64,000 bases of DNA. Source: a virus. The stretch is from positions 1 to 64,000 of the IMG/VR virus record IMGVR_UViG_3300044984_001421, one strand, 5' to 3'. Of the stretch, positions 7,829-60,041 are shown piece after piece (the stretch's first letter is position 1; each line of letters opens with the position of its first letter). A program made the translations under genes and the position numbers. The notes beneath the pieces were generated by a model. It worked only from the letters and a program-made list of their open reading frames with translations. It was not told the DNA's origin and ran no database searches.

Positions 7829-8215
7829 ATGAGATCAATCGACATCATCGAAGCCGCAGAATTCCTTGGCCTGCACTGCAACACCCTGCAGGCCAGGGCG
7901 AAAGCCGGCGAAATCCCTGGCGTCAAGATCGGGAAAGAGTGGAGATTCATCGACGTTGATCTTGTCGAATACATGCGCTCACAATACCTGTCCAACAAAC
8001 AGGACGGGCAAGAGTCGTGTCGATCTACAAGCGAGGCGAAATCTGGTGGTACTCGATCACGCTCAAAGGTAGACCAAGGGCTAGAGGAAGCACTGGCGAG
8101 AGTGATCGGGAAAAGGCGCAGCGCAAGCACGACGAGATCAAAGCAGAACTCTGGCAAGCCAAGCCTGTCCGTGGTGCAGAACGCACATGGAACGACGCAT
8201 GCATTGCCTGGCTGA
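7829..8215 (+). CDS. Excisionase-like HTH_17 protein (overlaps int)
   Basis: EAAEFLGLH..TL..A..GEIPG.KIGKEWRF, directly upstream of the integrase. Confidence 0.75.
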   Translation: MRSIDIIEAAEFLGLHCNTLQARAKAGEIPGVKIGKEWRFIDVDLVEYMRSQYLSNKQDGQESCRSTSEAKSGGTRSRSKVDQGLEEALARVIGKRRSASTTRSKQNSGKPSLSVVQNAHGTTHALPG

Positions 8216-41182: not shown

Positions 41183-41260
41183 TGGAGCCGAAGACAGGAA
41201 TCGAACCTGTGACCTGCCGATTACAAATCGGCTGCTCTCCCAGCATAAAGCTACTTCGGC
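41183..41260 (-). tRNA. tRNA-Thr(UGU)
   Basis: GCCGAAG/CTTCGGC acceptor stem, GCCGA-TTTGTAA-TCGGC anticodon arm, GGTTCGATTCC, encoded CCA. Confidence 0.92.
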
Positions 41261-46781: not shown

Positions 46782-47692
46782 AAGACACAGCAACCGTAGT
46801 CGACACGCTGGTCGGTACGTCGGCCATCAACGCGATGGTCACGAAGTCGAACCGGGACAAGATGCCTTCGGAAAAACTCGGTCGAGTATTGGCCGCGCTT
46901 GGGGTCAACCCGATAGGCAAAGACCCGCGCGGGTTCATGCTGTGGTCTAGCATCGCTGTGCAAGCGGTCATCCCAGGAATCAGAAAGGTCATCGAGGACG
47001 AGAAGTCTGTGATTGACAAGCTGTCCGAGCCGCAGAAAGAAGAACCAAAGCCGGCCGCATTGCCAGAATACGCGAACCTTATCGCCGACATGGACCACCG
47101 GGTCAGCCTGATCATCGGCGACATAATGGAGGATACGGTCGAGAAGGTCGCGCAGATGCACGCTGGGAATCAAACCATCTTCAAGACGCTGATCGAGCAC
47201 GACAAGAAGCGGAAGGACGAACATGATGCGGTCATGCAGAACCTGCTCGATGTGACATCTGGACTTGCGGCCATCGTTGCGAAACTGAATGAGCCGGTAG
47301 TCGATAAAAAACCCGCGCAGGCGCAGATTGCCGATCCAACTTCCAAAGAGATACCGCGAGTTGTTGAAATTCTTGAGTCGGCAATCCAAGGGAAAAAACA
47401 CCGTCCGCACATCGGCATCATCGGCATCACATCGCCGGCATCGTCGCAGATTGAAAAAGAGTTCTGCGATAGTTTCAAGATATCGATGCTCGGCCCGAAC
47501 GAGCCGCACAAGATCGTCAATATGCGCAACTGCGACCGCGTCTTTACGCTGCGCGGCAAGGTCATGTCGCGCCACATGAACGAACTCAAGAATATCGGAC
47601 AGAAGCCGTACAGTATCGGAGACAGCGTGAGCAAGATCCGCGACGCGCTGACGGCTTACTTCATCGAAGTGTCTGAGAAGGAGGCAGCATGA
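46778..47692 (+). CDS. Hypothetical protein
   Basis: ATGA-coupled 304-aa ORF. Confidence 0.6.
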   Translation: MKDTATVVDTLVGTSAINAMVTKSNRDKMPSEKLGRVLAALGVNPIGKDPRGFMLWSSIAVQAVIPGIRKVIEDEKSVIDKLSEPQKEEPKPAALPEYANLIADMDHRVSLIIGDIMEDTVEKVAQMHAGNQTIFKTLIEHDKKRKDEHDAVMQNLLDVTSGLAAIVAKLNEPVVDKKPAQAQIADPTSKEIPRVVEILESAIQGKKHRPHIGIIGITSPASSQIEKEFCDSFKISMLGPNEPHKIVNMRNCDRVFTLRGKVMSRHMNELKNIGQKPYSIGDSVSKIRDALTAYFIEVSEKEAA

Positions 47693-47925
47693 TGCTTCCG
47701 CAATCATCGGAACGCATCAGAAAGCTCAAGTCAGAAGGTGCTGCCAAACGTAAGCGCCTTATGTCTCTGGTGCCTGATGAATTCACCATAGCGCAGTTGG
47801 TGATGGCCTCTGGGATGAGCGCATCAGAAGCCAGATCACAGATCCAGAAAATGATGCGATGGAATGAAGTGAAGCAGACAAGCGAATACAAAACTCCACG
47901 CACATACAGAAAGGATGCAGCATGA
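47689..47925 (+). CDS. Small winged-helix-like protein
   Basis: AAGGAGG RBS; coupled. Confidence 0.5.
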   Translation: MMLPQSSERIRKLKSEGAAKRKRLMSLVPDEFTIAQLVMASGMSASEARSQIQKMMRWNEVKQTSEYKTPRTYRKDAA

Positions 47926-48206
47926 GCCGCCCTACACATCGAGGAAACACACTGTCCCCGGAAATGAATGCATCAGAACTGACCTATCTTGCGATGAGAG
48001 CAGGCCCGATTGATGCGTCTGCGCTCCGCATAAGAGCCGGAGGAATCAGCCACGCAAACAAGATGGTTCGCATCGGGCATGCGACGGTCAGTACAGACGG
48101 ACAGAATCCGGTCTACCGCATCACGAATGAAGGACGTGCAGCGTGCCCAAGCCGCCGCACAATCGAGAAGGAAATCGTTGAGATTTATCCGGGAGTGATG
48201 GCATGA
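47922..48206 (+). CDS. Hypothetical protein
   Basis: Coupled; YRITNEGR wing-like motif. Confidence 0.5.
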   Translation: MSRPTHRGNTLSPEMNASELTYLAMRAGPIDASALRIRAGGISHANKMVRIGHATVSTDGQNPVYRITNEGRAACPSRRTIEKEIVEIYPGVMA

Positions 48207-48466
48207 ACGAAACTGAACTCGAATCTCCGCGAGATGAAATGGGCCGGCTGCTCAGTCACGGTGAGCATTACTGGCTGGACTTGCCGATTCACCCCAATGC
48301 TGCTGCGGCTCTCGGAGAAGAACGGATGATCGTGATCTTCAACCAGACGATGGTGGCGCTCCACAACAACGTCGCCAACCGGCTGATATTTGCCTGGTCC
48401 GGTTCGATGCGTTACCCAGGCTGCCACGGTGATGTCGTGTTTAACGAAGCTGGGGATGCAGCATGA
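48203..48466 (+). CDS. Hypothetical protein
   Basis: ATGA-coupled. Confidence 0.5.
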   Translation: MNETELESPRDEMGRLLSHGEHYWLDLPIHPNAAAALGEERMIVIFNQTMVALHNNVANRLIFAWSGSMRYPGCHGDVVFNEAGDAA

Positions 48467-48783
48467 AAACAGCATCGAAACAAACCTTGGAAGCGCGCAT
48501 AGCAACGCTTGAGCGTCAGCTTCAAGAAGCCATAGCAGGGCAAGCGCACACCTACCACTTCGCTGACGCCTATCTGGACAAGGCGAGCACTAAACACCTC
48601 ATGGCTTCTGGTGTGATTCTGACCATGACGGTGCTCGGTGGGAGGGCAATCTGCGAACCAGTGTTGATCCGGGATGGGCTGTCAGACGAAACGATAGCCG
48701 CACTGAAGGCTGACATGCGCCGAAGTTACGAACTGGCGACCATGTACAAACCTAAACCGCTGCCACAAAAGGAAGAAAAATGA
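48463..48783 (+). CDS. Conserved phage hypothetical protein
   Basis: PV.IRDGLS.ETI.AL..D..RSYE motif. Confidence 0.6.
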   Translation: MKTASKQTLEARIATLERQLQEAIAGQAHTYHFADAYLDKASTKHLMASGVILTMTVLGGRAICEPVLIRDGLSDETIAALKADMRRSYELATMYKPKPLPQKEEK

Positions 48784-49148
48784 GCAACAAGCACTACGCG
48801 GAACGCGACGCCATGGAACAGGGGCAGTTCTACATCGACCACGTCATGGCAATGACAGCAGAGGAACTGCACAGCAAGGCGGACATCGCCGCAGAGTTAG
48901 CGCACCGAGACATCATCATCAAGAACCTCGAAAACCGCCTCGCTGTCTGGGAAGCCGGCACTGCTGCGGACATCTCGCGGTCGATGATCAAGACGGCAGA
49001 CAAACTCATGCAGGAGCGCGATGCCATCAAGTCCGCGCTCTCCGATCTGCTGTTTGTCATCAACCCGGACAAGGACGGGTCGTTTTTCATCTGCGAAGAA
49101 GGAGCGGTAATTATCGCTGCCGCGCGGATTACATTGGAGGAATCATGA
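48780..49148 (+). CDS. Conserved phage hypothetical protein
   Basis: YAERD..Y..HV.AMT.E.LHSK.DIAAELA.RD motif. Confidence 0.65.
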   Translation: MSNKHYAERDAMEQGQFYIDHVMAMTAEELHSKADIAAELAHRDIIIKNLENRLAVWEAGTAADISRSMIKTADKLMQERDAIKSALSDLLFVINPDKDGSFFICEEGAVIIAAARITLEES

Positions 49149-49369
49149 GCGAGAAAAACACAGGCGGGCCGGCGTTTCCGTTTGCATTTGCAGATGAAGA
49201 CCGGGTTAGTGATGGCATGACCATGCGCGATTACTTCGCGGCGAAGGCGATACCTTACGCACAAGAATCAGGTTTCTATGACAAAACAAAGCCTGGAACT
49301 TGGGCAGAACAGGTTGCGGTTGAGTGCTATGAGATGGCCGACGCAATGCTGAAAGCGAGGGAAGCATGA
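49145..49369 (+). CDS. Conserved small phage protein
   Basis: GGPAFP..GMT.RDYFAAKA..Y..ADAML..R motif. Confidence 0.75.
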   Translation: MSEKNTGGPAFPFAFADEDRVSDGMTMRDYFAAKAIPYAQESGFYDKTKPGTWAEQVAVECYEMADAMLKAREA

Positions 49370-49450
49370 GCCGGCCAGGACAAGGAACAGACATCAAGGT
49401 CGCCAGCCCGGCATGCCGGATGTTCGAGCAGAAATAACCGTTTTTTTATG

Positions 49451-49479
49451 TTGCTTTATAACAGTTTTGTTTGTACTGT
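49451..49479 (+). promoter_or_regulatory. Island promoter P3
   Basis: TTGCTT-17 nt-TACTGT with TATAACA-gttt-TGTT; ATG 7 nt downstream (49486). Confidence 0.6.
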
Positions 49480-49485
49480 AAGCGC

Positions 49486-49680
49486 ATGGACAGAAAAACA
49501 GCCATCCAGGTAATCAAGGTCGCCGGATACCACGGTGATACGAAAACATTCATGCGGACCTACTGCGAGAACAGGATCAGCTTCGCCGTCGCGGATAACT
49601 TCTTCCGCAAGGGTAAGCAAGCAAAGCTGGCCGGCATGAAGTGCGACTGCAACCAGTGCAAGAAGGAGAAAGGCGAATGA
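49486..49680 (+). CDS. Small Cys-containing protein
   Basis: AGYH.D...F.R.Y.E.RIS..C.C..C; apparently leaderless from P3. Confidence 0.55.
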   Translation: MDRKTAIQVIKVAGYHGDTKTFMRTYCENRISFAVADNFFRKGKQAKLAGMKCDCNQCKKEKGE

Positions 49681-49913
49681 GCACGCACACGGTCTTACAG
49701 TGCCACAAAACCAAGTGGCACAAGAATCCGGTGTCAGGTCACGAATGGCCTGAATTCACGTTCATCAACCGCTGGCAAGTTCAGGGCGGTGTGGCGCTTG
49801 GCGAAGTCTTCTTCAGCGAGAAAGCTGCGCAGAAGCATGCCGACTTCCTCAACAAGTTCTGCCCGCCTGAATACATCAAGCGCATCCAGGCGATAACTGC
49901 ACCGAAGGAGTGA
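49677..49913 (+). CDS. Hypothetical protein
   Basis: ATGA-coupled. Confidence 0.5.
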   Translation: MSTHTVLQCHKTKWHKNPVSGHEWPEFTFINRWQVQGGVALGEVFFSEKAAQKHADFLNKFCPPEYIKRIQAITAPKE

Positions 49914-49914
49914 C

Positions 49915-50262
49915 ATGGACAACAACAAGACCGCACTCATGCTATCCCAGGCCATACCGATGGGAGAGCACGACAACCCGCACGGAGAATGGATTCGGGT
50001 CCGTCTCGACGTTGTTCTTGACGCCATCGAGCAACTCAAAGACGCGGCACGTTACCGCTGGCTGATGGAGCGGATGCAGGAAGTCTATGACGGCGCTAAC
50101 TATGACATTGGTCATGTCGACATAAGCTGCATGATGATCTTCGGCCGCAAAGAAGTGCGTCGCGTGTCGGCAGAAATTAGCTGGTTCGATGAGCGAGACG
50201 AAGACCTCAACTTGAGCTCGGCAATTGACCGCGAACTCCAACAACCAACAACAAAGGATTGA
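49915..50262 (+). CDS. Hypothetical protein (KDAARYRWL motif)
   Basis: AAGGAG RBS; common phage motif. Confidence 0.6.
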   Translation: MDNNKTALMLSQAIPMGEHDNPHGEWIRVRLDVVLDAIEQLKDAARYRWLMERMQEVYDGANYDIGHVDISCMMIFGRKEVRRVSAEISWFDERDEDLNLSSAIDRELQQPTTKD

Positions 50263-50264
50263 AG

Positions 50265-50627
50265 ATGTGGATCGCACTTAATAACAGCTTCTTAAGCATT
50301 GTCCGAAAGCAGCCGCGCGACAAGTTCCTGACCGTCCGCGCCAGGGTTGCTGGCGACATTGAGCGCGTGTTCCCGGACGCTAAGGTCCAGGTCGGAGGCG
50401 GAACGGATTACAAGTTCCGCGCGCAGATCGGCGATAAGGTCGTGGCGGATGCCATCGCAAAGCAGATCAAAGGCATCAGCTACGGCAACTTTAAGGACAG
50501 CGTGCAGGACGATGACCGGCACGATGCCTACTTCAACGTGTGGCGCGCGATGATGGCGATGCAGAAGATGCCAGTCGACCACCGGCAAGATGCGATGTTT
50601 GACTTCTACGAAGACAGTGTCGATTGA
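50265..50627 (+). CDS. Conserved phage hypothetical protein
   Basis: MWI....FLSIV..L.VRAR..DY..RA..I.Y.NFK. Confidence 0.65.
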   Translation: MWIALNNSFLSIVRKQPRDKFLTVRARVAGDIERVFPDAKVQVGGGTDYKFRAQIGDKVVADAIAKQIKGISYGNFKDSVQDDDRHDAYFNVWRAMMAMQKMPVDHRQDAMFDFYEDSVD

Positions 50628-50629
50628 TT

Positions 50630-50693
50630 ACGCAACGCTGGCGTAACCGGCGCGCAGCGAAGCGGAGCGTCCGCGTTGACGCAAATGTTAGAA
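50630..50693 (-). repeat. attC site A
   Basis: Minus strand: TTCTAAC atttg CGTCAACG ...GCTTCGC... GGTTACG ccagc GTTGCGT. Confidence 0.8.
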
Positions 50694-50711
50694 CTCAGGA
50701 GGGAATAGACC

Positions 50712-50918
50712 ATGCAACTCAGAGAGGGCGAAGTGGCTTTTGTGATGGCGCAAATTGCGCTGCTGAACTGCGAAGTGGCTGGCATGCAGGCCGAAAACAC
50801 GCACCGCCTGAACTGCGGAAATTCCGTTGCCTACGGCGCGGACGAGTTCGCGGCCGTGCGGCAGCAGTACGAGGCGCTGATCGGCAGCAACGCGATCTTA
50901 GAGATGGCGCGGTCATGA
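50712..50918 (+). CDS. Cassette-borne hypothetical protein
   Basis: AGGAGG RBS; GM.AEN..R...G.S.AY motif. Confidence 0.65.
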   Translation: MQLREGEVAFVMAQIALLNCEVAGMQAENTHRLNCGNSVAYGADEFAAVRQQYEALIGSNAILEMARS

Positions 50919-50976
50919 GTTCTAACGAATGACGTGTTAGCCACGACACGCTAAAACGTGGCACCACTGAGAGGAT

Positions 50977-51345
50977 ATGAACGTGCGAACTTTGACTGAC
51001 CATAAGATTAACCCCGGCAATGACACGCTGACCATTACCGTGCTGGACGAACCTGGGCACGGTGGAGCAAACCACGCCTACGACATCGAAGGTGGCGAGG
51101 CGGTACCGACGCACCTGCGCTTTCAAAACGGCCCGATCAACGCGGACGGCAACGGCGTGAATGGCATTACTCACGAGGCGTTGCTTGCGGTGCTGTGTGA
51201 CCGCCTGCGTGGGTTCCAGGCGGGGCAGTATGCCTGCAAAGCGAACGCTTGCGCACTGACCCACCTGGAAGAAGCACAGCACTGGCTGCAACAGCGCACC
51301 ATCGAGCGTATGCGGCGTGGCGTCGAAGGCACGCACACGGTTTGA
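50977..51345 (+). CDS. tad1: Tad1-like anti-Thoeris signalling-molecule sponge
   Basis: G.GGA.H.Y, FQNG, DRL..FQAG, NACALTHLEEA..W..R..R..R.V.GT match the recalled Tad1 signature. Confidence 0.78.
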   Translation: MNVRTLTDHKINPGNDTLTITVLDEPGHGGANHAYDIEGGEAVPTHLRFQNGPINADGNGVNGITHEALLAVLCDRLRGFQAGQYACKANACALTHLEEAQHWLQQRTIERMRRGVEGTHTV

Positions 51346-51381
51346 TGTTATGGCCGGCATGACGACGCGAGAACTCATGCC

Positions 51382-51472
51382 GGCTAACGAACCAGCTAAG
51401 TGGCGCGCGTGACCAAGCCAAACGAAGCTGCGCCGGATGTTCGCGCGTCCCGCCTTGAGCGCCTTGTTGGGC
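51382..51472 (-). repeat. attC site C
   Basis: Minus strand: GCCCAAC aaggc GCTCAAG ...GCGCG/CGCGC... CTTAGC tggttc GTTAGCC. Confidence 0.8.
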
Positions 51473-51636
51473 TTCTCTGGGCGATCATCTGGCGTCGATG
51501 GATGACTGGGCCTGGCGGTCACAAGCGGCGAGTGGTGCGCGTTAAGGGGTGGCGCACAGCCATCGTCGAGAGCGACTGGGAAATGCGCGTGACGGTGACG
51601 CCGTGTTTCTCGGTTTTTGGATGGCGGTTCGATTGA
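51409..51636 (+). CDS. Cassette-borne hypothetical protein starting inside attC
   Basis: Only ORF that fills the cassette; start uncertain. Confidence 0.4.
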   Translation: MTKPNEAAPDVRASRLERLVGLLWAIIWRRWMTGPGGHKRRVVRVKGWRTAIVESDWEMRVTVTPCFSVFGWRFD

Positions 51637-51640
51637 TGAC

Positions 51641-51708
51641 GCCGAACGCCTAGCTAACCGGCGCAGGCGGCCTTATCGCCTGCGTCCGGGTTGAGCGACG
51701 TGTTATGC
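51641..51708 (-). repeat. attC site D
   Basis: Minus strand: GCATAAC acgtc GCTCAACC ..GCAGGCG/CGCCTGC.. GGTTAGC taggc GTTCGGC. Confidence 0.85.
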
Positions 51709-51731
51709 CTTTGACAACGAAAGGATGCGCA

Positions 51732-52415
51732 ATGGAACACACAAAAGAGCGTTGGGAGTGGTCGGAGCACAAATTCAACGCGCCGCCGTTCGAGGGGACA
51801 CTTGACCACGAATGCGGCATTTACCCACCAGACGGCGAGAGCGGCCCTGTGGCGATAGCCAGCGGGAAGAACGACGCACGGCGCATTGTGGCTTGCGTGA
51901 ATGCTTGCGCCGGAGTGACGACGGAAGAACTTGAGCAGGGCGGGTTTGTTTCTGGACTGATTGAGCAGCGCGACGAGCTTGCAAAACTGTGCAACTACAA
52001 CGAGCGCTTGATGCAGGACTGTTTGCGCCTGGCCGAAGAAGCGCCGCGCTGGCGTGATGTGGTTGATGAGCTTCCGCAAGAGGCGCAAGAAGTGCTGTTT
52101 GTGCGTGACGGAAAGACAGTTCACGGCGCGTGGATTGGCGGGATATTCTGGCACAGCAACAAGAAGATGGCCGCTGCGCAATGGATGCCACTGCCGAAAC
52201 CGCCAACGGCGGCGCTTGCGAGACGGCGGCCTGTGGCGTGGATTCGGTTTTGCAGCGACGGATGCTACGAGGGGCCGATCATGGACGCACAGATTGAAGA
52301 TGTGCGAAAGCAAAGCGGGGCATGGACTCCGCTCTATAAGCACAACGACTTGCGACTGGTGCAGGTTGGTCCCTGCACATGCAGCGACCACGAATGCGGG
52401 GAGTGCATGCGATGA
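51732..52415 (+). CDS. Cassette-borne mosaic phage protein (DUF551-like segment)
   Basis: DARRIVACVNACAG, W....ELP..WMPLP.PP motifs. Confidence 0.65.
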   Translation: MEHTKERWEWSEHKFNAPPFEGTLDHECGIYPPDGESGPVAIASGKNDARRIVACVNACAGVTTEELEQGGFVSGLIEQRDELAKLCNYNERLMQDCLRLAEEAPRWRDVVDELPQEAQEVLFVRDGKTVHGAWIGGIFWHSNKKMAAAQWMPLPKPPTAALARRRPVAWIRFCSDGCYEGPIMDAQIEDVRKQSGAWTPLYKHNDLRLVQVGPCTCSDHECGECMR

Positions 52416-52654
52416 ACTTCGACGACTGGATGGCTACGCAAAACCCTAAGTACATGCCGACCGACGACACTGTGGCGCTGAGGTTGCTGCGCGATTGCTG
52501 GAGAGCGGCGGAGTTCCACAGTGATAGAGCGCAGGAGCGCGAGCGGATGATTGCACTGATGCGAGATAAGTGCAGGAAAGTCGGCGCTGACAGGACGGCG
52601 GCACCTCATGGGCGTTGCGGCATACCAGGAATGCTTGGACACCATGAGGCATAA
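52412..52654 (+). CDS. Cassette-borne hypothetical protein
   Basis: ATGA-coupled; its TAA lies inside the GCATAAC boundary. Confidence 0.5.
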   Translation: MNFDDWMATQNPKYMPTDDTVALRLLRDCWRAAEFHSDRAQERERMIALMRDKCRKVGADRTAAPHGRCGIPGMLGHHEA

Positions 52655-52702
52655 CGCATGAGACACAGCAGAATTGACGTATAACTGCGAAATCTAGATG
52701 TT

Positions 52703-53926
52703 TTACTTCATGCCAGCCTTGCTGATGACATCGTGATCTGCTTCGCTATCCAGATACAGATGAAGATCTGACTCTGGAACAAGATGCGCTGCCTGGCTCT
52801 CCCAGCCAACGTCCGCAGGCGTTCCTCCGACACGAACCGCATGATAGTAGCGTGTTACAGATGACGTCCGGTCGACGTCACAGGCATAGCCTACGATCTT
52901 CACCTTCAGGCCGGATTCTTCGAACACTTCCTTGATGGCATTCGCCTGCCAGGACATCTCGTCCTCGATTTTCCCTTTAGGGAACGTGTTTTTATAGCCG
53001 CCGAACTGGTTGGTCGGAGACACCAGCCAGACACGACCATCCGGCTCTTTGATGATGCAGCCTGATGCCGGCTTGAGTCCTTGCTTCAGATGCATGACAG
53101 GCTCGTCCAGGTCTTCCATCTGCCCTTCGACGTAATCCCACTCTTCGTCGGTCTTGGGATGATCCAGCCAGGGTGACAACGCGAGTCCGTTCAATTCGTC
53201 CGGGCAAGCGCCACCAGGGATGAACGTCGCCGTCTTCTTCTGGTCGTGCCAGGTTTCAGGCGCAGTCTGATGATTCGGGTTGTAGATCCCGACCGGCTTA
53301 CCGTTGTCGCCGTTCTTCGGGTGGTAGACCTTGGGCGGCGCTTTCGGCAGCGTGTGGAACAGGAACGAGCCGCCACCCATGCCGTACTGCGGCGCGACAA
53401 TCTTCTGGTGCGGCTGCGTACTCAGTTTCTTGATCTTGCCGGAGTCGGTGTGCTTGATGCGGAACAGCGATCCTTGGCGCTCGTAGTCCTTGACGACCGT
53501 GCCGTCCTTCTTTGTGTGACCGTGGACGTGCGACTTCGCCATCGTCTCGCCACCGGCAAGCATTTTGTCTACTGCCTTCTTTGCGTCTTCAATGCCGCCA
53601 GGATTCGCCCATGCCTGCGCACGGTAGTGGTCAGAGGACTTCTCTCCGGTGGATGGGTTGACGACCAGTTTGTAATCATGCCGGTCGAGTATCTCGAACA
53701 CCGTGGTAACAGTTTTCTTCGTGCCAGCCTTCATCTGCCCAAACACAGATTTTGTTGCCTTTTTCGAGCCTTCACGCTTGAACACGCGCAACCGAAAGCC
53801 ACGATACGGCTCGCCGACGTTGTGCTCAGTTCTTGAGTCCTCATGGGCGCGAACGGCTGTGCCGTCTTTGCGCACAAAGCCGTGGACGTGCGACTTCAAC
53901 AACCCGGAGTCGGTGACAACGATCAT
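52703..53926 (-). CDS. NUDIX hydrolase with two capsid-tag copies
   Basis: FPKGKIEDEMSWQANAIKEVFEESGL Nudix box; LLKSHVHGFVRKDG and MAKSHVHGHTKKDG. Confidence 0.8.
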   Translation of the reverse strand: MIVVTDSGLLKSHVHGFVRKDGTAVRAHEDSRTEHNVGEPYRGFRLRVFKREGSKKATKSVFGQMKAGTKKTVTTVFEILDRHDYKLVVNPSTGEKSSDHYRAQAWANPGGIEDAKKAVDKMLAGGETMAKSHVHGHTKKDGTVVKDYERQGSLFRIKHTDSGKIKKLSTQPHQKIVAPQYGMGGGSFLFHTLPKAPPKVYHPKNGDNGKPVGIYNPNHQTAPETWHDQKKTATFIPGGACPDELNGLALSPWLDHPKTDEEWDYVEGQMEDLDEPVMHLKQGLKPASGCIIKEPDGRVWLVSPTNQFGGYKNTFPKGKIEDEMSWQANAIKEVFEESGLKVKIVGYACDVDRTSSVTRYYHAVRVGGTPADVGWESQAAHLVPESDLHLYLDSEADHDVISKAGMK

Positions 53927-54417
53927 GCCGGCATCCTTTCTTCTGCTCCCATCAGAACTTTGACCGCGTACTGCAGCGACGGCTTGAGCATCACACCAAA
54001 CAGCATGTCGTCGCCATCGGCCAGCTTCCACTTCTCGATAACCAGCGCAGCCAGCCAGTCGAACAGGACCGCGACAGGATCATCGGCGAACTCATGCCGG
54101 TGAGCATGCCAATGCGGTCCCAGGTCAATCTTCAGCTTGTTGCCCAGCGTGAAGTCGTTATAGCCATTGATGATGCTGTAACCAGGGTCACGCCCGGAGA
54201 AGATGCCGGCCAGACGGGTGATCTCAGAGCCAAGTTCAGCATGCGCAGAATCTCCCGGAACCTCTCCGGAAGACGCTGCCATGGCAATCGCTTCAACCTT
54301 GGCGGCGAATCCACCAACCAAGCCGGCGACTACATCAGGATTGCCAAGACTGGTCGCGCTTGACGGGTCCGAGAAGGCTCCTGGCGATACACGATAACGG
54401 TCTCTTTCTTGTCCCAT
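53923..54417 (-). CDS. Hypothetical protein (possible immunity/chaperone)
   Basis: Helical 164-aa ORF between the ART and NUDIX genes; lacks the tag. Confidence 0.5.
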   Translation of the reverse strand: MGQERDRYRVSPGAFSDPSSATSLGNPDVVAGLVGGFAAKVEAIAMAASSGEVPGDSAHAELGSEITRLAGIFSGRDPGYSIINGYNDFTLGNKLKIDLGPHWHAHRHEFADDPVAVLFDWLAALVIEKWKLADGDDMLFGVMLKPSLQYAVKVLMGAEERMPA

Positions 54418-57400
54418 TCCGAATTACTCCTTAACGATTTCGCCAGCGTCTGGCCTTTAAGTTGAGCCACGAAGCCAGTGTCTGGCGGCAGCATGATAAC
54501 GTCGATGAATACGCCTTGCGGGTGGTTGTGACCGCCAGGCTGAACATCGACTACCAGATACCGCTGGCCCGGCAACGTTGTCAGTTCGCCCTCACTGCCG
54601 AGAGAGCCTGTGCCATACGTCGGCGTTGCTTTGCACCCTGCCGCGCAGCGAATCCGCATCTTGATCTGCTTGCCGTCCCCGTTCGTAAAGTGCGGCGAGT
54701 CGCCCCAGCTTTCGTGGAACGAGGTACACATCGAGTCCGTGTTCTGCAGTATAGCGCCCGGCTTGGTGGCGAGAAGCTGCTTGGTCATCGACTTGCCAGC
54801 CGTGTCGTCGTCCATCCATCGCCACATCTGCGTGCCTTCAGGAAGATCCACAGCGTCGTCGTAGATGCCAGCCGTCACCTTGTTGATCGGCGTCGAGTCG
54901 TATGACGACTTGCCATGCGACCACAGATGGTTTGCAGCACCAGAACCCTGCACACTTGAGATGTAGGTCTTGGTCGTGCTCCTGACCTTTTGATAGGCAG
55001 CCTTGAGCATTCCAGCGAACGATGTTCCTGACTTCTGCCAGAACCACTTCGTCCTTTTCAACAACGCGACAGCATCGCCTTCATCGATCTGGCACAACTT
55101 CATGAAGTACCCGAGACGGTGCTCCTGCGGGATTGTCGTCACGTTCTGGCCTGGCGCGAAAGAACCGACCGCATCGGCAATCTCGCTGACCAGACCGAAG
55201 CTGCCAAGCGACGGCATCTCCAATGTTTCGACAGGAGGATAGCCAATCGACTGCAGCGTCTGGACCAGCGACGCCCACTGCTGCTGGATGTGGTTGGAAG
55301 GATGCTCTGTAATCGGCTTCTTGCCGATGGACTGGCCGGTCTCCTTGTCCACCGCGTCGTAGTGGTAATCCTTCAACGCCTTCAGGTTGCCTTGCATGGC
55401 GAAGGCTGCCAGAGCCGCGCTGTCGGCGCTGTTTTTGTCGTTGACGTGCTGCTTCGAAGATACCGGCTTTCCGCCGTTCAGCGTGTTGAAGTCAAGCGGC
55501 GGCTTGATGTCGGCCGGGTCGACGGTCAGCTTTGTCTCATCGACCGGAGGCGTATCCCACTGGTCGACAATTCCCATCTGCTTCAGGACGTCAGCGCGCC
55601 TGGCAATCAGCTTCTTGGCAAGCGCGGCCTTTTCCGCATCCGTGCCAGGCCCGGCAATTTTGCAGAGTTCTTCGATTTGCGACGGCTTCAACTTGTTCAA
55701 CTGCTTGCCACCCCAGGCAATCGATGCGTCCGTAGCGCCGGCAAAGACCGCCGCAGCCTTGGCGTTCTTGCCGTAGTCCTTCATGGTCTTCAACTCGGCA
55801 ACCGTGTCGCCGAAGTCCGCGCCCTTCTTGCCGCCCATGGCACGGTAGTCGAGCGAACCGCCCACGTCGATGCGGACAGCGCCGCCTGAACTGTTGAGCA
55901 GCAGGTTGTCGTTCGCCATGCCGACGACATCCCAGTTGCCGATCCAGGCGTCGATGGCGAATGCCTGGTGTGCGCCAGCTGCGCTGGCAAGATTCTCAGC
56001 GCTGCCCTTCTTCATCCCATCAACCCACTTCGAGGCGATACCCAGCTTGCCGTCCTTTTCGACCAGCTTCAGCGTCGGAACATCGACGCCAAGCATCTGG
56101 TAGAACTTGGCAGCCAGGAATTCGCTGCGCACCATTTCGGCGTCGGCCGGGAACTTGCAATACCACTCCTGCCCGCCTTTGTCCTTGAACTTTCCGCCAG
56201 GGTTTGAACCCAACTGCGGACCAGTCTGCGGCCAGGAATCCATTACCGAAACGTGGTCGCCAAGCTTTGACTTGGCAATCGAGATCGGCGCTGCCGGTTC
56301 AACTTTGTGCCAATGGCCGTTTTGGAACACCAGCATGCCATCCGCGCCCTGCTTGGTATCGCCGTCCTTCGGGCTGGCAGATTGAGCGGCAGTAGAACCC
56401 AGTGCAGCGGGGTCAACGCCTTCTGCTTCCGGATCGAACTTGCCAAGCGCAGCGGCATGCATTTGCTGGCAGAACTTGTAGAACTGTTGACGACGAACAA
56501 GCGTCGAGATCGATGTACATTTTCCTGTTTTGAATCCAGTGACGTTTTGCTTCGCCGAAACAGAGCCGTCGTTGTGGAAAGTGACGTACTGCTTCAACCC
56601 TGTAACTCCGCCATTCAATACTGCGTTCTTTATCGCAGTCGAGATGTTGACGTAGATTTTTGAGTTTTGATGCGGATCAAGCGTCTCGTAATCCGGTACC
56701 GGAACTGCCGCTATCTGCTGCGCCTTGGTCAGTTTTTTCTTCTTCTTGAAGACGATGACAATCGGCGGAATCTCGGTGGGTATTGGCTCGAAGCCGGAAG
56801 AGCCGACATAGCTGTAACCGTTTGCGCCCTTCATTCCGACCAGCTTGATCGCAGCCTTGACCGCCGCGTCGTTGCTGGCATGGACTTCGTCGCCGCTGTG
56901 GCCTTTCTGCCCGATCTTGCCGTAGGTCTTGGTCAAAACAGTGCCATGGACCTCGACCTTGTAGAACTTGTTGTGCCCTGGTTTTTTGTTTTCCATGTGC
57001 GCAATCCACTTGTACCCGGTGGCAGGCTGCGCAGCAGGAGCCGCAGGAGCTGCAGCCACACCCTTGATCTTGTCCAGCATTCCGGAATCCGGCATGTGAA
57101 CGCCGAACATCTTGTCCAGCGTGTTGCGGACGTCGTTTTTGTCGAACGCGGACCATGGGCCAGAACCGCTACCATCGGCATCGGATGTGCCAATTTGGTA
57201 CTCTTTCAGGTCATTGTCCCAGCCCACATAGATGGTTGATGTGGCTGTGTGCTCAAGCAGGATCACGTTGTTCCCGCTGAACCCTTCGTCGTTCATCGAC
57301 ACTTGCCAGGTGCCGGATGGCGCAGGAGCATCGGACGCTGCCGGCTTGGCCGATTCCTGCTCGGCCTTTTCCTTCAGAAACTCCTGCTGTCCATTGGTCA

Positions 57401-60041
57401 AAGAATGCCAAAGCGCCCACATGGTCTTGTCCGTGTTGTCGGTCTGCGGCATGCCAGCCGAGATCCACAACTTGAGCGCGTGCTCGTCTTCAGCAGACAC
57501 ATTGGATGGAGCAACCTGCAAGTGCCAGCGACCGTTGAACAGGACGTAGTTCTTGCCGTTGATTTCCTTGACGTCGCCCTCTTTCGGCCCGCCTTCCTGC
57601 GTTTTCTGGCCTGGATGAAAGGCCAGGTTGAGCATCTTTATCGGGTCAGCGCCTTCGTTCTGGACAGCAACCTCGACCGCAAGTTCATAGGACGCTGAGT
57701 GCATCGGCGGCGATGCGGGAGCAGGAATCTCGCCGGCCAGCATCGAGAACATGGCAGCCTTCCAGCCGTTCTTGCTGTAATCCTGTCCGGTCAAGATGTT
57801 CTTCCAGGAGCCGTCCTTCTGCTTCTGGTAGTTGTGCCCTTTGTACGAAGCGTTCACCGCCATCTTGCCAGCGGCAGCATCCATCTTGCCGGCCGTTTGC
57901 ATGGCCTGGTCGAGCGCGTACATCGGAGAAGACCAGCCGTCGCCGTCCAGTTCATCGTCGATGAACGACTGATAGAAGCCATCGGCAGTCTTGACGACCT
58001 TCACATGGTGCCCGTTTACGTTGTCGAACAACACAGTCTCGCCGGCAGCAGGAGGAACGTCAGGCATTACCGGAGCACCGACCTTGCCGCCTTGTTTCTT
58101 GTTTTCCGCCTTCAAGTGCTGGACTGCCGTCTTCAACGCGGAAGGTTTCAGCCCTGCGTTGTTCGCCAGAGCCGTAACGACACGCTCCAGCGCTTCACTC
58201 GGAACGTGGGCGAGGACCGACATATGATCAATCACGGCGTTGATTGCTTCCTGCGACGGCATGTCGGGAGTGGATGGCTTCGAAGCTGCAAGCCACTGCT
58301 CTCCTGCCTTGTCGATCAAGTGACCAACTTTATCCAGCCCATGCTTGGCAATCGCCGCACTTATGTGCTGCTGGCCGTTCAGTTCCTCGTAAGTCATTGC
58401 TTCGTGCTGCTCGACAGTCGGCACCTTGCCGGCATCGAGCGAGGCGTGCCAGCCATCAACGCCAGGGATGGTGTGCGGGTCAACGTCTGGCGCGACCTCT
58501 GATTCATGCAGCCACACGGCAACCTGCTTCGGGTTGAATCCGTTCTTTTGATACGTCCCTTGATCGACACTGGATAGGTGGGCATACACCGTCTCGTCGG
58601 CCGAGAGCTTTGCGCCGATGGCGAGCAGATACCACTTGCCACCGTCGTAATCGACGACCTTCTTGTCGGCCATCTTCGCCTGGTATTCTGCCTTTTCTTT
58701 TTCGGCTAAAGACGGCGACTTGTGCCAACGCCCGTCCTTGAAGGTCAGCGTCCCGCCTTCGCCTTGCTTGGTGTCGCCATCCTTCGGCGAATCATCCGCT
58801 TGCAGCACCACCTTTGCAGTACCGGCAGCGAGCGCAGCGTGCAGCGTCTCCTTCGGGATTGAGACGGTGTTCTTCGGGCCAGGCACCGTCGCTCCGACCT
58901 TGTGCATCTGGTAGGAGTCTGCGCTCTGGTTGTAGATCGTCCAGTCGCCCGCGTTCATCTTGGCGTACTGGCTGTCCAGCTTCAGCACAGCGCCGGTCTT
59001 GAGGTCCGGGTGCTTGGCAGGCTCTGGTACCGGAGCGGCAATGTTCGCGGCATTCCAGCCGACAGACCACTCCTGCAGCGCGTCCATGTATTCGGCATAC
59101 GGCAGATGGTTGTGCGCCTGCAAGAAGTCCTGGTCGATACCTGCTGCGTGCGGCTTTCCAGCAGCGAACGCCGCTGCGCCGTATTCCTTCGGGGTCATGG
59201 GCTTCTTGTCGTTCGCATCGACATGAACAGGCGACGTGTCGCTGTTTTCCGTTTTCTTCGACACGACACCCATCAATGCCTCGGCCTTTTCAGCGCCAAT
59301 GGCCGACTCGATATCTGTCGCCATTTTGGCGACTTTGACCGGGTACTTAGCTGCGTACTCGAAGTACGCCTTCTTCTGGCCGGAAGTCGGCGTCTGGCCG
59401 GCGAGCATTGCCGCCTTCCAGCCCGAAACAGCAGCGGACAGCGAAGCCTCGGCCTGCAGATCGGTGGCGTGCGCCAGGACCAGCATCGCCTTGTCGTGGT
59501 CGCCAAGCGCGCCGAAGTCTTTCAGTTCCGCCGACAGCTTCTTGTGCGCGGCTTTCTGGTAGTGCGAGCCTTGGCCGTTTCCGACCTTGGCATGGTCGTG
59601 GTCGTCCGAGACGTTGACCATCTTGTGATGGGCATGGATTACCGTGCCGTCCTTCTTCACCGACGCAGGAATCCACATCTCCTTTTTCACGGTCGCCTTC
59701 AGCAAGTCCTCGGTGAACACCAGTATTGACTTGTGAATCGGCACGCCGGAAGACTTCGCGTTCTGAACAGCCGCATGCAACTGCTCGGCGGTTGCACCTT
59801 CGCCGCCGAATAGATCGTTCGTGCATTTTTCAGGCTTCTTCATGCATTCGTCAGAGAACGGCGACGCCTTCATGGGTGGTGCTTTCGGACGGGCGAACAG
59901 ATCAGACGTGTGCGCGTCCTTGGAGGCTCCGCGCGAGTTTGAATGCGGTGACACCTGGACGACGCGACCGTTGGCAAGGCGACGCTCGTAGCCACGCACA
60001 GCGCCCTTGATGATGTCGGTGACGAAAAACATGATGGTCAT
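54330..60041 (-). CDS. Giant polyvalent protein: WGR + HipA/PI3K-like kinase + ADP-ribosyltransferase
   Basis: NKFYKVEV..YGKIGQKG (WGR); GSNPGG..WYCK..E.LAAKFY..DAWIGNWDVVG..N..RIDVG (kinase); MWRW..CTS..EGE (R-S-E ART). Confidence 0.75.
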   Translation of the reverse strand: MTIMFFVTDIIKGAVRGYERRLANGRVVQVSPHSNSRGASKDAHTSDLFARPKAPPMKASPFSDECMKKPEKCTNDLFGGEGATAEQLHAAVQNAKSSGVPIHKSILVFTEDLLKATVKKEMWIPASVKKDGTVIHAHHKMVNVSDDHDHAKVGNGQGSHYQKAAHKKLSAELKDFGALGDHDKAMLVLAHATDLQAEASLSAAVSGWKAAMLAGQTPTSGQKKAYFEYAAKYPVKVAKMATDIESAIGAEKAEALMGVVSKKTENSDTSPVHVDANDKKPMTPKEYGAAAFAAGKPHAAGIDQDFLQAHNHLPYAEYMDALQEWSVGWNAANIAAPVPEPAKHPDLKTGAVLKLDSQYAKMNAGDWTIYNQSADSYQMHKVGATVPGPKNTVSIPKETLHAALAAGTAKVVLQADDSPKDGDTKQGEGGTLTFKDGRWHKSPSLAEKEKAEYQAKMADKKVVDYDGGKWYLLAIGAKLSADETVYAHLSSVDQGTYQKNGFNPKQVAVWLHESEVAPDVDPHTIPGVDGWHASLDAGKVPTVEQHEAMTYEELNGQQHISAAIAKHGLDKVGHLIDKAGEQWLAASKPSTPDMPSQEAINAVIDHMSVLAHVPSEALERVVTALANNAGLKPSALKTAVQHLKAENKKQGGKVGAPVMPDVPPAAGETVLFDNVNGHHVKVVKTADGFYQSFIDDELDGDGWSSPMYALDQAMQTAGKMDAAAGKMAVNASYKGHNYQKQKDGSWKNILTGQDYSKNGWKAAMFSMLAGEIPAPASPPMHSASYELAVEVAVQNEGADPIKMLNLAFHPGQKTQEGGPKEGDVKEINGKNYVLFNGRWHLQVAPSNVSAEDEHALKLWISAGMPQTDNTDKTMWALWHSLTNGQQEFLKEKAEQESAKPAASDAPAPSGTWQVSMNDEGFSGNNVILLEHTATSTIYVGWDNDLKEYQIGTSDADGSGSGPWSAFDKNDVRNTLDKMFGVHMPDSGMLDKIKGVAAAPAAPAAQPATGYKWIAHMENKKPGHNKFYKVEVHGTVLTKTYGKIGQKGHSGDEVHASNDAAVKAAIKLVGMKGANGYSYVGSSGFEPIPTEIPPIVIVFKKKKKLTKAQQIAAVPVPDYETLDPHQNSKIYVNISTAIKNAVLNGGVTGLKQYVTFHNDGSVSAKQNVTGFKTGKCTSISTLVRRQQFYKFCQQMHAAALGKFDPEAEGVDPAALGSTAAQSASPKDGDTKQGADGMLVFQNGHWHKVEPAAPISIAKSKLGDHVSVMDSWPQTGPQLGSNPGGKFKDKGGQEWYCKFPADAEMVRSEFLAAKFYQMLGVDVPTLKLVEKDGKLGIASKWVDGMKKGSAENLASAAGAHQAFAIDAWIGNWDVVGMANDNLLLNSSGGAVRIDVGGSLDYRAMGGKKGADFGDTVAELKTMKDYGKNAKAAAVFAGATDASIAWGGKQLNKLKPSQIEELCKIAGPGTDAEKAALAKKLIARRADVLKQMGIVDQWDTPPVDETKLTVDPADIKPPLDFNTLNGGKPVSSKQHVNDKNSADSAALAAFAMQGNLKALKDYHYDAVDKETGQSIGKKPITEHPSNHIQQQWASLVQTLQSIGYPPVETLEMPSLGSFGLVSEIADAVGSFAPGQNVTTIPQEHRLGYFMKLCQIDEGDAVALLKRTKWFWQKSGTSFAGMLKAAYQKVRSTTKTYISSVQGSGAANHLWSHGKSSYDSTPINKVTAGIYDDAVDLPEGTQMWRWMDDDTAGKSMTKQLLATKPGAILQNTDSMCTSFHESWGDSPHFTNGDGKQIKMRIRCAAGCKATPTYGTGSLGSEGELTTLPGQRYLVVDVQPGGHNHPQGVFIDVIMLPPDTGFVAQLKGQTLAKSLRSNSEWDKKETVIVYRQEPSRTRQARPVLAILM

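Follow-up and report, generated by a model that had tools for sequence, protein, structure and literature searches.

Integrons are regarded as devices of bacteria, with the integrase selecting the strand in such a way that captured genes face the Pc promoter. Departures from this layout are known: integrons with an inverted integrase gene are present in Treponema and others, and the arrays of Vibrio contain reverse-oriented toxin-antitoxin cassettes with their own promoter. An own promoter is likewise ascribed to toxin-antitoxin cassettes in the available part of a published article (PMC13108822). According to the accessible portion of the 2023 study by Qi, Rajabal, Ghaly, Tetu and Gillings (PMC9892861), integron parts are present in 21 of 10,705 phage genomes, with 17 CALINs; the bottom strands of phage attC sites were recombined by IntI1 in an assay, and the phage cassettes are described as bacterial-like or divergent in orientation.

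The locus described here belongs to record IMGVR_UViG_3300044984_001421 (85,367 bp, estimated completeness 93%), which represents a temperate, myovirus-like, 85-kb phage from lake water. The DNA analysed, referred to as the window, is a stretch of 64,000 nucleotides corresponding to positions 1 to 64,000 of this record. In the 3'-terminal part of an operon on the + strand, it contains three full attC sites and one internally deleted site, bounding four cassettes. We consider it likely that this array is an integrase-less (CALIN) set of four integron cassettes of a phage-specific integron form. A megablast search with region 48,000-55,000 against 50,697 phage records gave no match, although close relatives may have been outside the scope of this search.

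Anatomy, strand and family of the attC sites

The sites and the box that closes the array are as follows:

50630-50693, + strand (= bottom strand): attC site A, 64 nt, R' box ACGCAAC (50630-50636), R'' box GTTAGAA (50687-50693)
50917-50942, + strand: stub attC, internally deleted, R' box GAGTTCTAAC (50917-50926), 9 nt, R'' box GTTAGCC (50936-50942)
51382-51472, + strand (= bottom strand): attC site B, 91 nt, long loop, R' box GGCTAAC (51382-51388), R'' box GTTGGGC (51466-51472)
51641-51708, + strand (= bottom strand): attC site C, 68 nt, R' box GCCGAAC (51641-51647), R'' box GTTATGC (51702-51708)
52647-52655, + strand: terminal R'-type box AGGCATAAC, closing the array, with the cut point written AGGCATAA|C

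All attC coordinates and boxes given in a preliminary description of this DNA were confirmed when read off the sequence. The stub and the three full sites all possess the AAC and GTT of the inverted terminal core boxes (5'-RYYYAAC...GTTRRRY-3'). Site A proceeds from the R' box through a 5-nt spacer, the L'/stem, the loop, the arm with the unpaired bases and another spacer to the R'' box, and its unpaired bases T50670, C50674 and G50678 occupy positions 24, 20 and 16 counted from the 3' end. The same positions are taken in site C by T51685, G51689 and G51693, respectively, and site B has G51457 at position 16 and C51453 at position 20, with its T at position 25, next to an additional unpaired C. 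The 5-nt spacers are non-complementary and the loop lengths differ among the three full sites. In the accessible part of the corresponding literature (PMC5027507), the bottom strand of an attC is defined by an AAC in R' and by extrahelical bases opposite the AAC arm, namely, G16, an optional base 20 and T23/24, with a 6-bp stem from the first to the last. Sites A and C, with G16, C/G20, T24 and 6 pairs between them, meet this definition. These observations support the assignment of the + (coding) strand of the window as the attC bottom strand and of the - strand as the attC top strand.

A covariance model (R1) was built in this analysis from 131 training rows that include the three window sites. 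On the + strand of the window, it assigned 67.9 bits to site C, 62.9 bits to site A and 44.4 bits (E=1.6e-11) to site B, as compared to at most 15.8 bits on the - strand of the full sites (12.2 for site A) and no more than 11.6 bits in the rest of the window. The stub, in which the L boxes and the stem are absent, was not significant alone (10 bits, E=2), and its support consists of its boxes and position only; a similar stub is found at about 375-400 of viral locus L084. Motif scans of the 85,367-bp record revealed no full attC sites beyond A, B and C, and the model detected nothing at E<=1 in bases 63,901-85,367.

Since the window sites had trained the covariance model, exact-pattern matches elsewhere were used as the independent test of the family. 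The exact attC pattern was found at 83 sites in 77 viral (IMG/VR) stretches; bacterial stretches with this pattern numbered at least 120, the majority from Betaproteobacteria. The covariance model gave 317 matches, arranged in arrays, across 79 viral loci; the core of site A is 98% identical in other viral loci. The notion in the preliminary description that integrons are rare in phages has to be qualified: 21 of 10,705 genomes are reported in the available part of PMC9892861, and this single attC family is carried by 77 IMG/VR contigs. Retrieval of the loci relied on a single exact pattern or a single IntI query, and sampling was therefore narrow; furthermore, near-duplicate contigs inflate some counts, and IMG/VR labels may cover non-phage DNA. 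One distant relative, L079, was recognized via a NUDIX protein (44% identity) and also has a 46% homologue of gene 50259-50627. There is no synteny with it, and no attC-model match to it among the best 300 of the 317.

Over the 131 family members, AAC and GTT are at least 90% conserved, and two L-box pairs in the alignment occur as four pair types each, with 3 and 7 rows unpaired. Within site B, an AAG/CTT pair replaces the AAC/GTT of the other sites, which is a compensatory change. Unconstrained DNA folding produced the attC hairpin for site C only (z=-2.1), whereas site A (z=-1.3) and site B (z=+1.7) adopted other folds. As attC folds are protein-assisted and the pairs covary, this failure is not counted against sites A and B.

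The hairpins are intergenic and on the transcribed strand, and attC sites are thought to hold weak terminators (Qi et al., available part of PMC9892861), so that they could be seen as RNA processing, stability or termination elements whose likeness to attC is incidental. We find this hardly credible. A T-run is absent, there is no terminator-like match at the sites, and an Rfam gathering scan of the window reported only the tRNA at 41186-41260 and no family matching the attC sites. In bacteria, the same attC family is on the non-coding strand, beside IntI, and neither the AAC/GTT boxes nor the cassette-end complementarity described below has an RNA rationale.

Cassettes, cargo and proposed exchange

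On the + strand, a unit starts with the C of a 5'-RYYYAA|C box and extends through the AA of the box that follows, and the attC is therefore upstream of its own gene. This definition results in four cassettes:

50636-50925, + strand: cassette 1, 290 bp, site A and a 68-aa ORF (50712-50918), with AGGAGG at 50697-50702
50926-51387, + strand: cassette 2, 462 bp, stub site and gene 50977-51345 (assigned as a Tad1 homologue)
51388-51646, + strand: cassette 3, 259 bp, site B and an uncertain 78-aa ORF (51400-51636)
51647-52654, + strand: cassette 4, 1008 bp, site C and genes 51732-52415 (227 aa) and 52412-52654 (80 aa)

Gene 50977-51345 aligned over residues 20-121 of 122 with PDB 8kbh and others (Thoeris anti-defense 1; E=1.9e-16) and matched phrog_2428 (E=9e-33); the Pfam family Acb2_Tad1_hairpin scored 18.9 bits, which is under its cut-off of 27. 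Judged by these sequence matches, the gene is a homologue of the anti-Thoeris protein Tad1. A family search with the 68-aa ORF of cassette 1 gave no match. The ORF of cassette 3 has a GTG start within site B, with shorter starts possible and an ambiguous codon score, and the TAA stop of the 80-aa gene forms the final three bases of cassette 4. When 97 cassette ORFs (the Tad1 of the window and 96 ORFs of viral arrays) were searched against Pfam, the matches were 6 N6_N4 methylases, 4 Mom, 2 C5 methylases and 1 MT-A70, with the reservation that one ORF may match overlapping families; the majority had no Pfam family. By inference, the cargo consists of counter-defence and accessory genes, the Tad1 homologue included.

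The complementarity of cassette ends noted in the preliminary description was fully reproduced, with 10/10 positions in cassette 1 (13/14 over 14 nt), 7/7 in cassette 2, 6/7 in cassette 3 and 9/9 in cassette 4. For each of the four 3' boxes, the best complement among the five 5' boxes is the next box downstream, with scores beyond GTT/AAC of 7, 4, 5 and 6 of 7 positions. Complementarity between the boxes of the same cassette amounted to 4.45/7, compared to 3.32 after shuffling (maximum of 3.85 in 2000 shuffles).

Indirect support for the exchange of units comes from shared sequences. Site C together with the 5' part of the 227-aa gene matches L014:5516-5837 (92.5% identity over 322 bp) and L023 (83% identity), and in both cases the left neighbours are unrelated, with the break at AAC. 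Among pairs of viral loci, the site co-travels with the right flank in 9 cases and with the left flank in none, and in 2 further pairs the right flank is common and the site is not. Two whole units were found bounded by 5' boxes on both sides in viral-viral alignments. Shared phage cassettes break at AA|C, and the attC therefore moves with the downstream gene, site C included.

Such joints might also arise without an integron integrase, if the attC cores of 58-64 nt were mere patches of homology for general recombination. Between contigs that are otherwise unrelated, the site cores show 95-98% identity; IntI was missing in 49 of the 50 records searched, and the source phage encodes a RecE-like exonuclease:

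3646-5439: gene for the RecE-like exonuclease of the source phage

Homology patches, however, predict joints anywhere in the core or at either end, whereas long viral-viral alignments ended 30 times at the 5' box and twice at the 3' box. When ends were counted in one direction, 14 were at the 5' box, none at the 3' box and 9 inside the site. The ends classified as elsewhere in this latter count (53 and 56) may hide undetected sites, and the half-site HMM finder kept 144 viral sites as compared to the 317 covariance-model matches; the bacterial breakpoint control was noisy (42 at the 5' box versus 19 at the 3' box). In addition, the boxes flanking a gene are complementary beyond the consensus, as circular intermediates but not homologous exchange would predict, and the structure is kept by compensatory changes, with the extrahelical bases retained. 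Recombination between homologous cores thus remains an unlikely source of these joints.

The stretch is present in lake-water metagenome runs, several of which may represent the source sample, and four of them (X7, X10, X12 and X14) were compared as Logan contigs. The attC cores had far higher contig depth, with unlike sequence starting at both core ends, which counts in favour of homology patches, and loose contig ends were present at 50634, 50691, 51645 and 51706. The raised depth and the loose ends show only that attC cores recur in other contexts of the samples. No cassette-skipping contigs were found in these four metagenomes; contigs cannot show absence, and this search therefore provides no evidence against excision. 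A lone joint between 52209 and 52407 (a single contig of depth 2, its shorter side having 26 letters) is located inside a gene and was rejected as too weak.

Integron integrases and reversed gene polarity

An IntI homologue was identified in 21 bacterial loci. In all 18 bacterial loci with an IntI and a detected site, the site strand is the intI coding strand, and the array is on the 5' side of intI. The same geometry was observed in phage locus G041, the IntI of which scored 453 bits, and for 67 of 70 matches in 49 IntI-bearing viral loci, which links the attC family to IntI in both groups.

The genes, on the other hand, differ in strand between these groups. Around 83 viral sites, coding was called on the strand of the site in 46 upstream and 46 downstream flanks and on the opposite strand in 4 and 0, whereas the corresponding numbers for 135 bacterial sites were 12 and 8 on the strand of the site and 41 and 63 on the opposite strand. 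Segments between sites gave the same contrast: 25 same strand, 0 opposite and 37 ambiguous in viral loci (62 segments), versus 4, 43 and 90 in bacterial loci (137 segments). At 62 sites of IntI-bearing viral loci, 40 and 41 calls were for the same strand versus 0 and 3 for the opposite one. Strands were called by codon log-odds, which agreed with the ORF map in all seven window regions used as a test, several of them backed by family matches; this caller left many flanks noncoding or ambiguous. A strand test based on the longest ORF was dropped, being mostly ambiguous on GC-rich DNA. In the source array, the polarity is antisense because the attC top strand is the - strand while the genes are on the + strand. 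Four independent lines support the view put forward in the preliminary description, of integron-type attC sites with genes antisense to the canonical cassette polarity: where the extrahelical bases lie, how the sites are oriented with respect to intI in bacteria and in phages, which strand the genes occupy in phage as opposed to bacterial arrays, and where shared cassettes break.

An IntI tree placed 29 of 36 viral IntIs in a single group with support of 100/99; none of the 12 bacterial sequences fell within it, and seven viral rows were among or near bacterial rows. As the tree is unrooted and the viral rows were fetched by peptide patterns from one phage IntI, a phage clade of IntI is suggested by these sequences and has not been shown.

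No IntI is encoded in the record of the source phage, which is estimated to be 93% complete. A genome scan of the 85-kb record with TIGR02249 had a best score of 14.4 bits, and the sole tyrosine recombinase gene is that of an ordinary phage integrase, which reached 27.6 bits against a cut-off of 265 for TIGR02249:

8017-9003, + strand: tyrosine recombinase gene (PF00589, E=4e-29)
52662-52685, + strand: possible decayed attI remnant, GACAC, 8 nt, TGACG, 2 nt, TAAC

With three full attC sites within 1.1 kb and no IntI in the record, the criteria for a CALIN are met. The location of arrays beside an integron integrase and an attI, which is a criterion for attC sites, is fulfilled by the attC family and not by the source genome. 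Any recombination therefore needs an enzyme in trans, as had been inferred in the preliminary description. IntI-bearing phage contigs have a conserved attI (AAC|TTAAATTC..CGACAC..TGTCG..TAAC; 25-contig alignment), and the position of the stretch at 52662-52685 matches that of this attI. A loosened attI pattern had its sole window match there and none in 100 shuffles; however, it was loosened post hoc, after the window had been seen, and the TTAAATTC part is absent, so that the match is weak.

A promoter named P3 in the preliminary description could not be substantiated, since a scan of 47,400-52,900 detected no sigma-70-like site, with 2.5 expected by chance. Nor is there the canonical arrangement, in which a Pc promoter at the attI side transcribes top-strand genes, as the genes are on the bottom strand. 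That the array is transcribed from upstream is inferred solely from the tight co-directional packing of genes; cassette expression would accordingly be run-through from the upstream phage operon.

Alternatively, the array could be a dead remnant of a chromosomal integron of the host, acquired by illegitimate recombination and without a role in the phage. The attC family also occurs in Betaproteobacteria, fragments of chromosomal integrons in phages have been published (accessible part of PMC9892861), and decayed parts, namely, the stub site and the weak attI, are present. This origin is nevertheless very improbable, given that the gene polarity is opposite to that of bacterial arrays with the same attC family and that the cargo includes a phage counter-defence gene. 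Moreover, every ORF has a ribosome-binding site or a start right past the 3' box and is co-read with the operon. Only 2 long alignments between viral and bacterial loci were obtained, both to small, probably mis-binned contigs.

The array probably descends, by inference, from a complete phage integron that has lost intI and most of attI; its polarity is the same as in complete phage integrons, with cassettes, attI and intI all on one strand. In the mechanism proposed for such an integrase-less set of phage cassettes, a site would fold when the + strand is single-stranded, with the R and L boxes pairing and G16, N20 and T24 flipping out. An integron integrase, supplied by an integron of a betaproteobacterial host or by a co-infecting IntI-bearing phage, would bind the folded site and cut A|C within AAC. 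Exchange between two attC sites would then release a cassette circle, and this circle could enter another phage array by recombining with either an attI or an attC there. Continued recombination of the sites in the source phage, and the enzyme responsible, are inferred and have not been shown; the absence of IntI from the record, the T at position 25 of site B, the one stub site and the weak post hoc attI-like stretch weaken the case for activity.

Comparison with known integrons

The source array and its family combine an unchanged site chemistry with genes that are all turned round. If the sites are active, phages would gain site-specific shuffling of single accessory genes, which would help to account for the fine-scale mosaicism seen in early and accessory regions. 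An ORF right behind a reversed viral attC would then be a counter-defence candidate, providing a simple rule for mining anti-defence proteins, and the rationale of integron polarity could be tested with two natural designs that use one attC family. A broader hypothesis, which we advance tentatively and doubt slightly more than we believe, is that phages of freshwater Betaproteobacteria run an integron branch of their own, with an IntI clade, an own attI, a back-to-front cassette pool, a polarity that separates phage and host pools, and integrase-less arrays serviced in trans. If this were true, phage cassettes residing in a host integron would be antisense to the resident transcription, as would host defence cassettes residing in a phage array, and phages could trade Tad1, Mom and orphan methylases via host recombination chemistry without arming the host.

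The presence of integron parts in phages has already been published (PMC9892861, as far as accessible). For the reversed polarity, no paper was found; the literature search for reversed cassettes or a phage attI yielded no describing article, with most subscription journals being outside its scope. The phage CALINs of PMC9892861 resemble the source array in being attC arrays without intI and with a cargo that includes orphan DNA methyltransferases; unlike here, the available part of that article mentions no systematic reversal, phage attI or phage IntI clade.

The sedentary chromosomal integrons of Betaproteobacteria (L100, L124, L134, L141, L179 and others) share with the phage loci the attC family as well as the placement and strand of the array with respect to intI; their IntIs are 54-64% identical to the phage IntI of G041. 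Their cassette genes, however, occupy the top strand of attC and point away from intI, whereas those of the source phage are on the bottom strand and those of complete phage integrons read towards intI. No cassettes common to viral and Betaproteobacteria loci were seen in the sample. The complete phage integrons (G041/L084 and 49 other IMG/VR contigs) have the same attC family and reversed cassettes, ending in ...RYYYAA|C followed by attI; they carry intI and the conserved attI, while the source phage has neither, with only the weak attI-like stretch. Integrons with an inverted intI and the reversed toxin-antitoxin cassettes of Vibrio are similar to the source array in not following the canonical layout, in which intI and cassettes diverge. 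In those cases, however, intI is flipped or single cassettes are reversed, whereas here the whole array is reversed and the intI-attC orientation is canonical.

Site anatomy and the attC family

The array occupies the + strand intervals listed below, and the strand so displayed is taken as the site strand.

attC sites and cassettes of the array (each cassette is a site plus its downstream gene or genes)
50630-50693, +, site A
50917-50942, +, attC stub
51382-51472, +, site B
51641-51708, +, site C
50636-50925, cassette 1
50926-51387, cassette 2
51388-51646, cassette 3
51647-52654, cassette 4

On this strand, a full site consists of the 5' box RYYYAAC, 5 unpaired nt, a stem, a loop, a return arm, 5 unpaired nt, and the 3' box GTTRRRY. 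The stem starts NNTAAC-CGG-CGC, the loop varies in length, and the return arm reads GCG[T]CCG[S]GTT[G]ANN, with brackets marking the bases left unpaired. Counting from the 3' end, these are T at position 24, C or G at 20, and G at 16 in sites A and C; the T of site B is shifted to position 25, where it adjoins one extra unpaired C. By the definition of Nivina et al. 2016 (PMC5027507), the attC bottom strand has AAC in R' and the extrahelical bases on the arm opposite AAC, namely, G16, an optional base 20, and T23/24, with a 6-bp stem between the outer two. Sites A and C match this definition exactly on their + strand. The boxes and coordinates of the preliminary description all proved correct when read off the sequence, and the complementarity that it had noted between the boxes flanking each gene (10/10, 7/7, 6/7, and 9/9) was reproduced. 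Each 3' box has its best complement in the next 5' box, not in that of its own site or any other, and such complementarity across genes is the trace expected of circular cassettes after integration. The whole 85,367-bp record was found to contain no sites beyond those of the window.

An exact pattern derived from sites A and C, with 23 specified bases and one variable gap, matched 83 sites in 77 IMG/VR stretches, every site having the same boxes, as well as at least 120 bacterial genome stretches; among the matches listed, most of the latter came from MAGs and isolates of Betaproteobacteria, such as Sulfuritalea, Gallionella, Sideroxydans, Duganella, and Rhodocyclales. In a 131-site alignment, four Watson-Crick types are seen for each of the two L-box pairs that adjoin the invariant stem, and pairing is missing from 3 and 7 rows; the covariation score of the alignment was reached by 0/500 shuffles. 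A covariance model built from this alignment scored the window sites at 67.9, 62.9, and 44.4 bits on the + strand and far lower when they were read on the - strand. The window sites form part of its training set, and the independent evidence is that of the pattern matches. At E<=1e-3, 317 model matches were identified across 79 viral loci, where they form arrays; individual loci such as L014 and L067 contain about ten to twenty. Matches within a viral locus nearly always lie on a single strand; L027 has two opposed groups. The matches of this viral contig at 281-355 (-) and 11341-11928 (+) suggest two arrays in opposite arms.

An integron integrase homologue is encoded in 21 bacterial loci, within the 8 kb fetched. 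In all 18 of these that also have a finder-detected site, the array lies 5' of intI and its displayed strand coincides with the intI coding strand, a geometry that identifies an integron attC family. In canonical integrons, the bottom strand has the same sense as the intI coding strand, as does the displayed strand of these 18 loci. For the sites, anatomy, strand, and family are observed, as is the link between this family and IntI. Recombination is confined to the bottom strand, which fixes cassette orientation (PMC11023631).

Gene polarity and unit boundaries

Gene direction was assigned by codon log-odds, for which 289 long ORFs from the retrieved loci served as the training set; seven window test regions were called as the ORF map indicates, several of them backed by family matches.

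Gene direction relative to the site strand (flanks as upstream/downstream; other flanks were noncoding, ambiguous, or too short)
83 viral sites: same strand 46/46; opposite 4/0
135 bacterial sites: same strand 12/8; opposite 41/63
62 viral inter-site segments: same 25; opposite 0; ambiguous 37
137 bacterial inter-site segments: same 4; opposite 43; ambiguous 90

Genes are therefore reversed relative to attC in phages, not in bacteria. In the window, both the Tad1 homologue of cassette 2 and a 227-aa gene conserved in viral loci L014 and L023 are on the + strand, and the gene direction is not in doubt. The attC array with antisense genes reported in the preliminary description was confirmed; its reading is supported, apart from the proposed promoter, which remains unverified.

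A crossover between AA and C of the displayed strand would give a mobile unit made up of C, site, gene, and AA. Among viral site pairs, nine share the site and right flank and not the left, and none shares the site and left flank and not the right; in four, the left flank is common up to AA and then diverges, and in two the right flank is common and the site is not. Site C with the gene at 51732 is among the nine: along 322 bp it shows 92.5% identity to L014:5516-5837, in a match that starts at AAC and has unrelated DNA to its left. The same combination is present in L023 at 83% identity. Long alignments between different viral loci (200-2500 bp, >=75% identity, both directions counted, near-duplicate contigs kept) have 30 ends that fall no more than 8 nt from a 5' box and two that fall as close to a 3' box; two of these alignments (L023 versus L063 and L029 versus L016) cover precisely one unit, with a 5' box at either end. 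The bacterial control, with 42 (5' box) versus 19 (3' box) ends, is blurred because neighbouring bacterial attCs are alike. Box complementarity across the gene exceeded that of all 2000 shuffles in viral and bacterial arrays. The unit boundaries at AA and C are thus observed, and each attC moves together with its downstream gene.

Only two long alignments link viral with bacterial loci, both to small contigs that look mis-binned, and the viral and bacterial cassette pools do not overlap in this sample. Sites of the phage type are present in three short "bacterial" contigs, L118, L125, and L142 (Planctomycetaceae, Saccharibacteria, and Firmicutes MAG bins); the gene polarity of L118 is likewise that of phages, and L118 and L125 have cassettes in common with viral loci. 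These contigs are probably phage DNA mis-binned into MAGs.

Phage integrases, attI, and proposed working

The IntI profile search covered 50 of the 77 motif-bearing viral records and identified one above the NCBIfam cut-off, G041 (locus L084; 453 bits versus 265), in which six sites with genes are followed by intI on one strand. Its attC at 1817-1942 spans 126 nt, with a long loop in which a stop is found together with a ribosome-binding site and the next ORF's start codon, so that attC and gene start are interleaved. With this IntI as a query, relatives were found in 50 viral contigs (39-100% identity). In 49 of these 50, there were 70 model matches, of which 68 were on the intI strand, 67 of those upstream of intI. 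After removal of eight (five duplicate rows, two on the - strand, and one downstream of intI), flanks of the 62 others coded on the intI strand 40 and 41 times versus 0 and 3 times on the opposite one. In a maximum-likelihood tree, which is unrooted and based on biased sampling, 29/36 viral IntIs form one group (100/99) and the 12 bacterial IntIs all fall outside it.

In 25 distinct contigs among L205-L254, the DNA about 60-100 nt upstream of intI has in common AAC followed directly by TTAAATTC, CGACAC, a short spacer, TGTCG, two bases, and TAAC; the DNA to the left is variable and ends in RYYYAAC. This stretch is an attI, and its junction falls at the point expected from the model. Some IntI-bearing contigs have a second TGTCG..TAAC repeat in this region. 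IntI is absent from the window phage record. Directly after the last cassette boundary (between 52654 and 52655), the window has at 52662-52685 a match to a loosened attI core, which lacks the TTAAATTC part of the phage attI; it is the sole match in 64 kb, with 0 in 100 shuffles, for a pattern fitted after the window had been seen. The array is probably the descendant of a phage integron that lost intI.

It is inferred that a host or co-infecting-phage IntI would fold and cut + strand sites, releasing and inserting units. Units may be expressed by run-through from the upstream operon, an inference made because a few bases separate the 3' box from the ribosome-binding site or start of each gene; cassette 4 would end exactly on its own TAA stop, inside the RYYYAAC box between AA and C. 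Our best guess for the reversal is that the phage module has one transcription direction: a fixed mutual orientation of intI, attI, and attC, together with a single upstream promoter, would force cargo onto the bottom strand, and an existing pool of reversed cassettes would require a polarity common to every phage array. If true, a side effect might be functional insulation from host arrays.

Cargo, phage context, and known phage integrons

The product of cassette 2 belongs to the Tad1 family (PDB "Thoeris anti-defense 1," E=1.9e-16, residues 20-121 of 122) and its gene also matches phrog_2428; L048 and L056 contain a homologue of 43% identity, likewise placed between two sites. No family matches were found for cassettes 1, 3, and 4. 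The 227-aa gene of cassette 4 (51732-52415) looks like a domain mosaic on sequence comparison: its N-terminal third and last 18 codons are found in one L014 cassette (L014:5516-6092), and its middle part (about 52038-52228) in another (L014:7942-8347), behind another attC copy of the same type. Most of 97 cassette ORFs, 96 between sites of viral arrays plus the window Tad1 gene, had no Pfam match.

Pfam matches of the 97 ORFs (several families per ORF possible)
N6_N4 DNA methylase, 6 ORFs
Mom, 4 ORFs
C5 methylase, 2 ORFs
DHH, 2 ORFs
DHHA1, 2 ORFs
MT-A70, 1 ORF
MazG, 1 ORF
MazG-like, 1 ORF

The source is a tailed phage, which also encodes a baseplate wedge; the window covers bases 1-64,000 of the IMG/VR virus record (CheckV completeness 93%), and its DNA was found in lake-water metagenome runs.

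Other features of the window
3646-5439, +, RecE-like recombination exonuclease (phrog_7655, E=3e-156)
8017-9003, ordinary tyrosine integrase
24866-26578, tail sheath
31741-33183, major head protein
41186-41260, -, tRNA gene (Rfam RF00005, 64.4 bits), adjoining a 1717-aa ORF

The array forms the 3' end of a small, tightly packed + strand gene block (about 47.9-52.65 kb) that converges on a - strand NUDIX gene (52703-54031). The 442-aa NUDIX protein and the neighbouring 1903-aa protein (54330-60041, -) have common short repeated motifs of the types H.HG..KKDGT.V..H and KDGDTKQG..G.L.F..G.WHK, several copies each. With its RecE-like exonuclease, the phage could make its own single-stranded DNA ends, and attC folding might benefit from them.

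In sum, the array lacks an integrase, is partly decayed, includes a Tad1 homologue, and belongs to a phage-type integron cassette system of reversed polarity; its activity is unproven. Full-text literature searches found no paper reporting reversed cassette polarity in phages. Qi et al. 2023 (PMC9892861) described integron parts in 21/10,705 phage genomes, including 17 CALINs, with methyltransferases among the cargo, and IntI1 recombined 5/6 tested phage attC sites; unlike the window array, these parts are not reported to have reversed polarity in the accessible portion of that paper. Integron parts in phages are already published, and the element that appears to be new is the reversed polarity.
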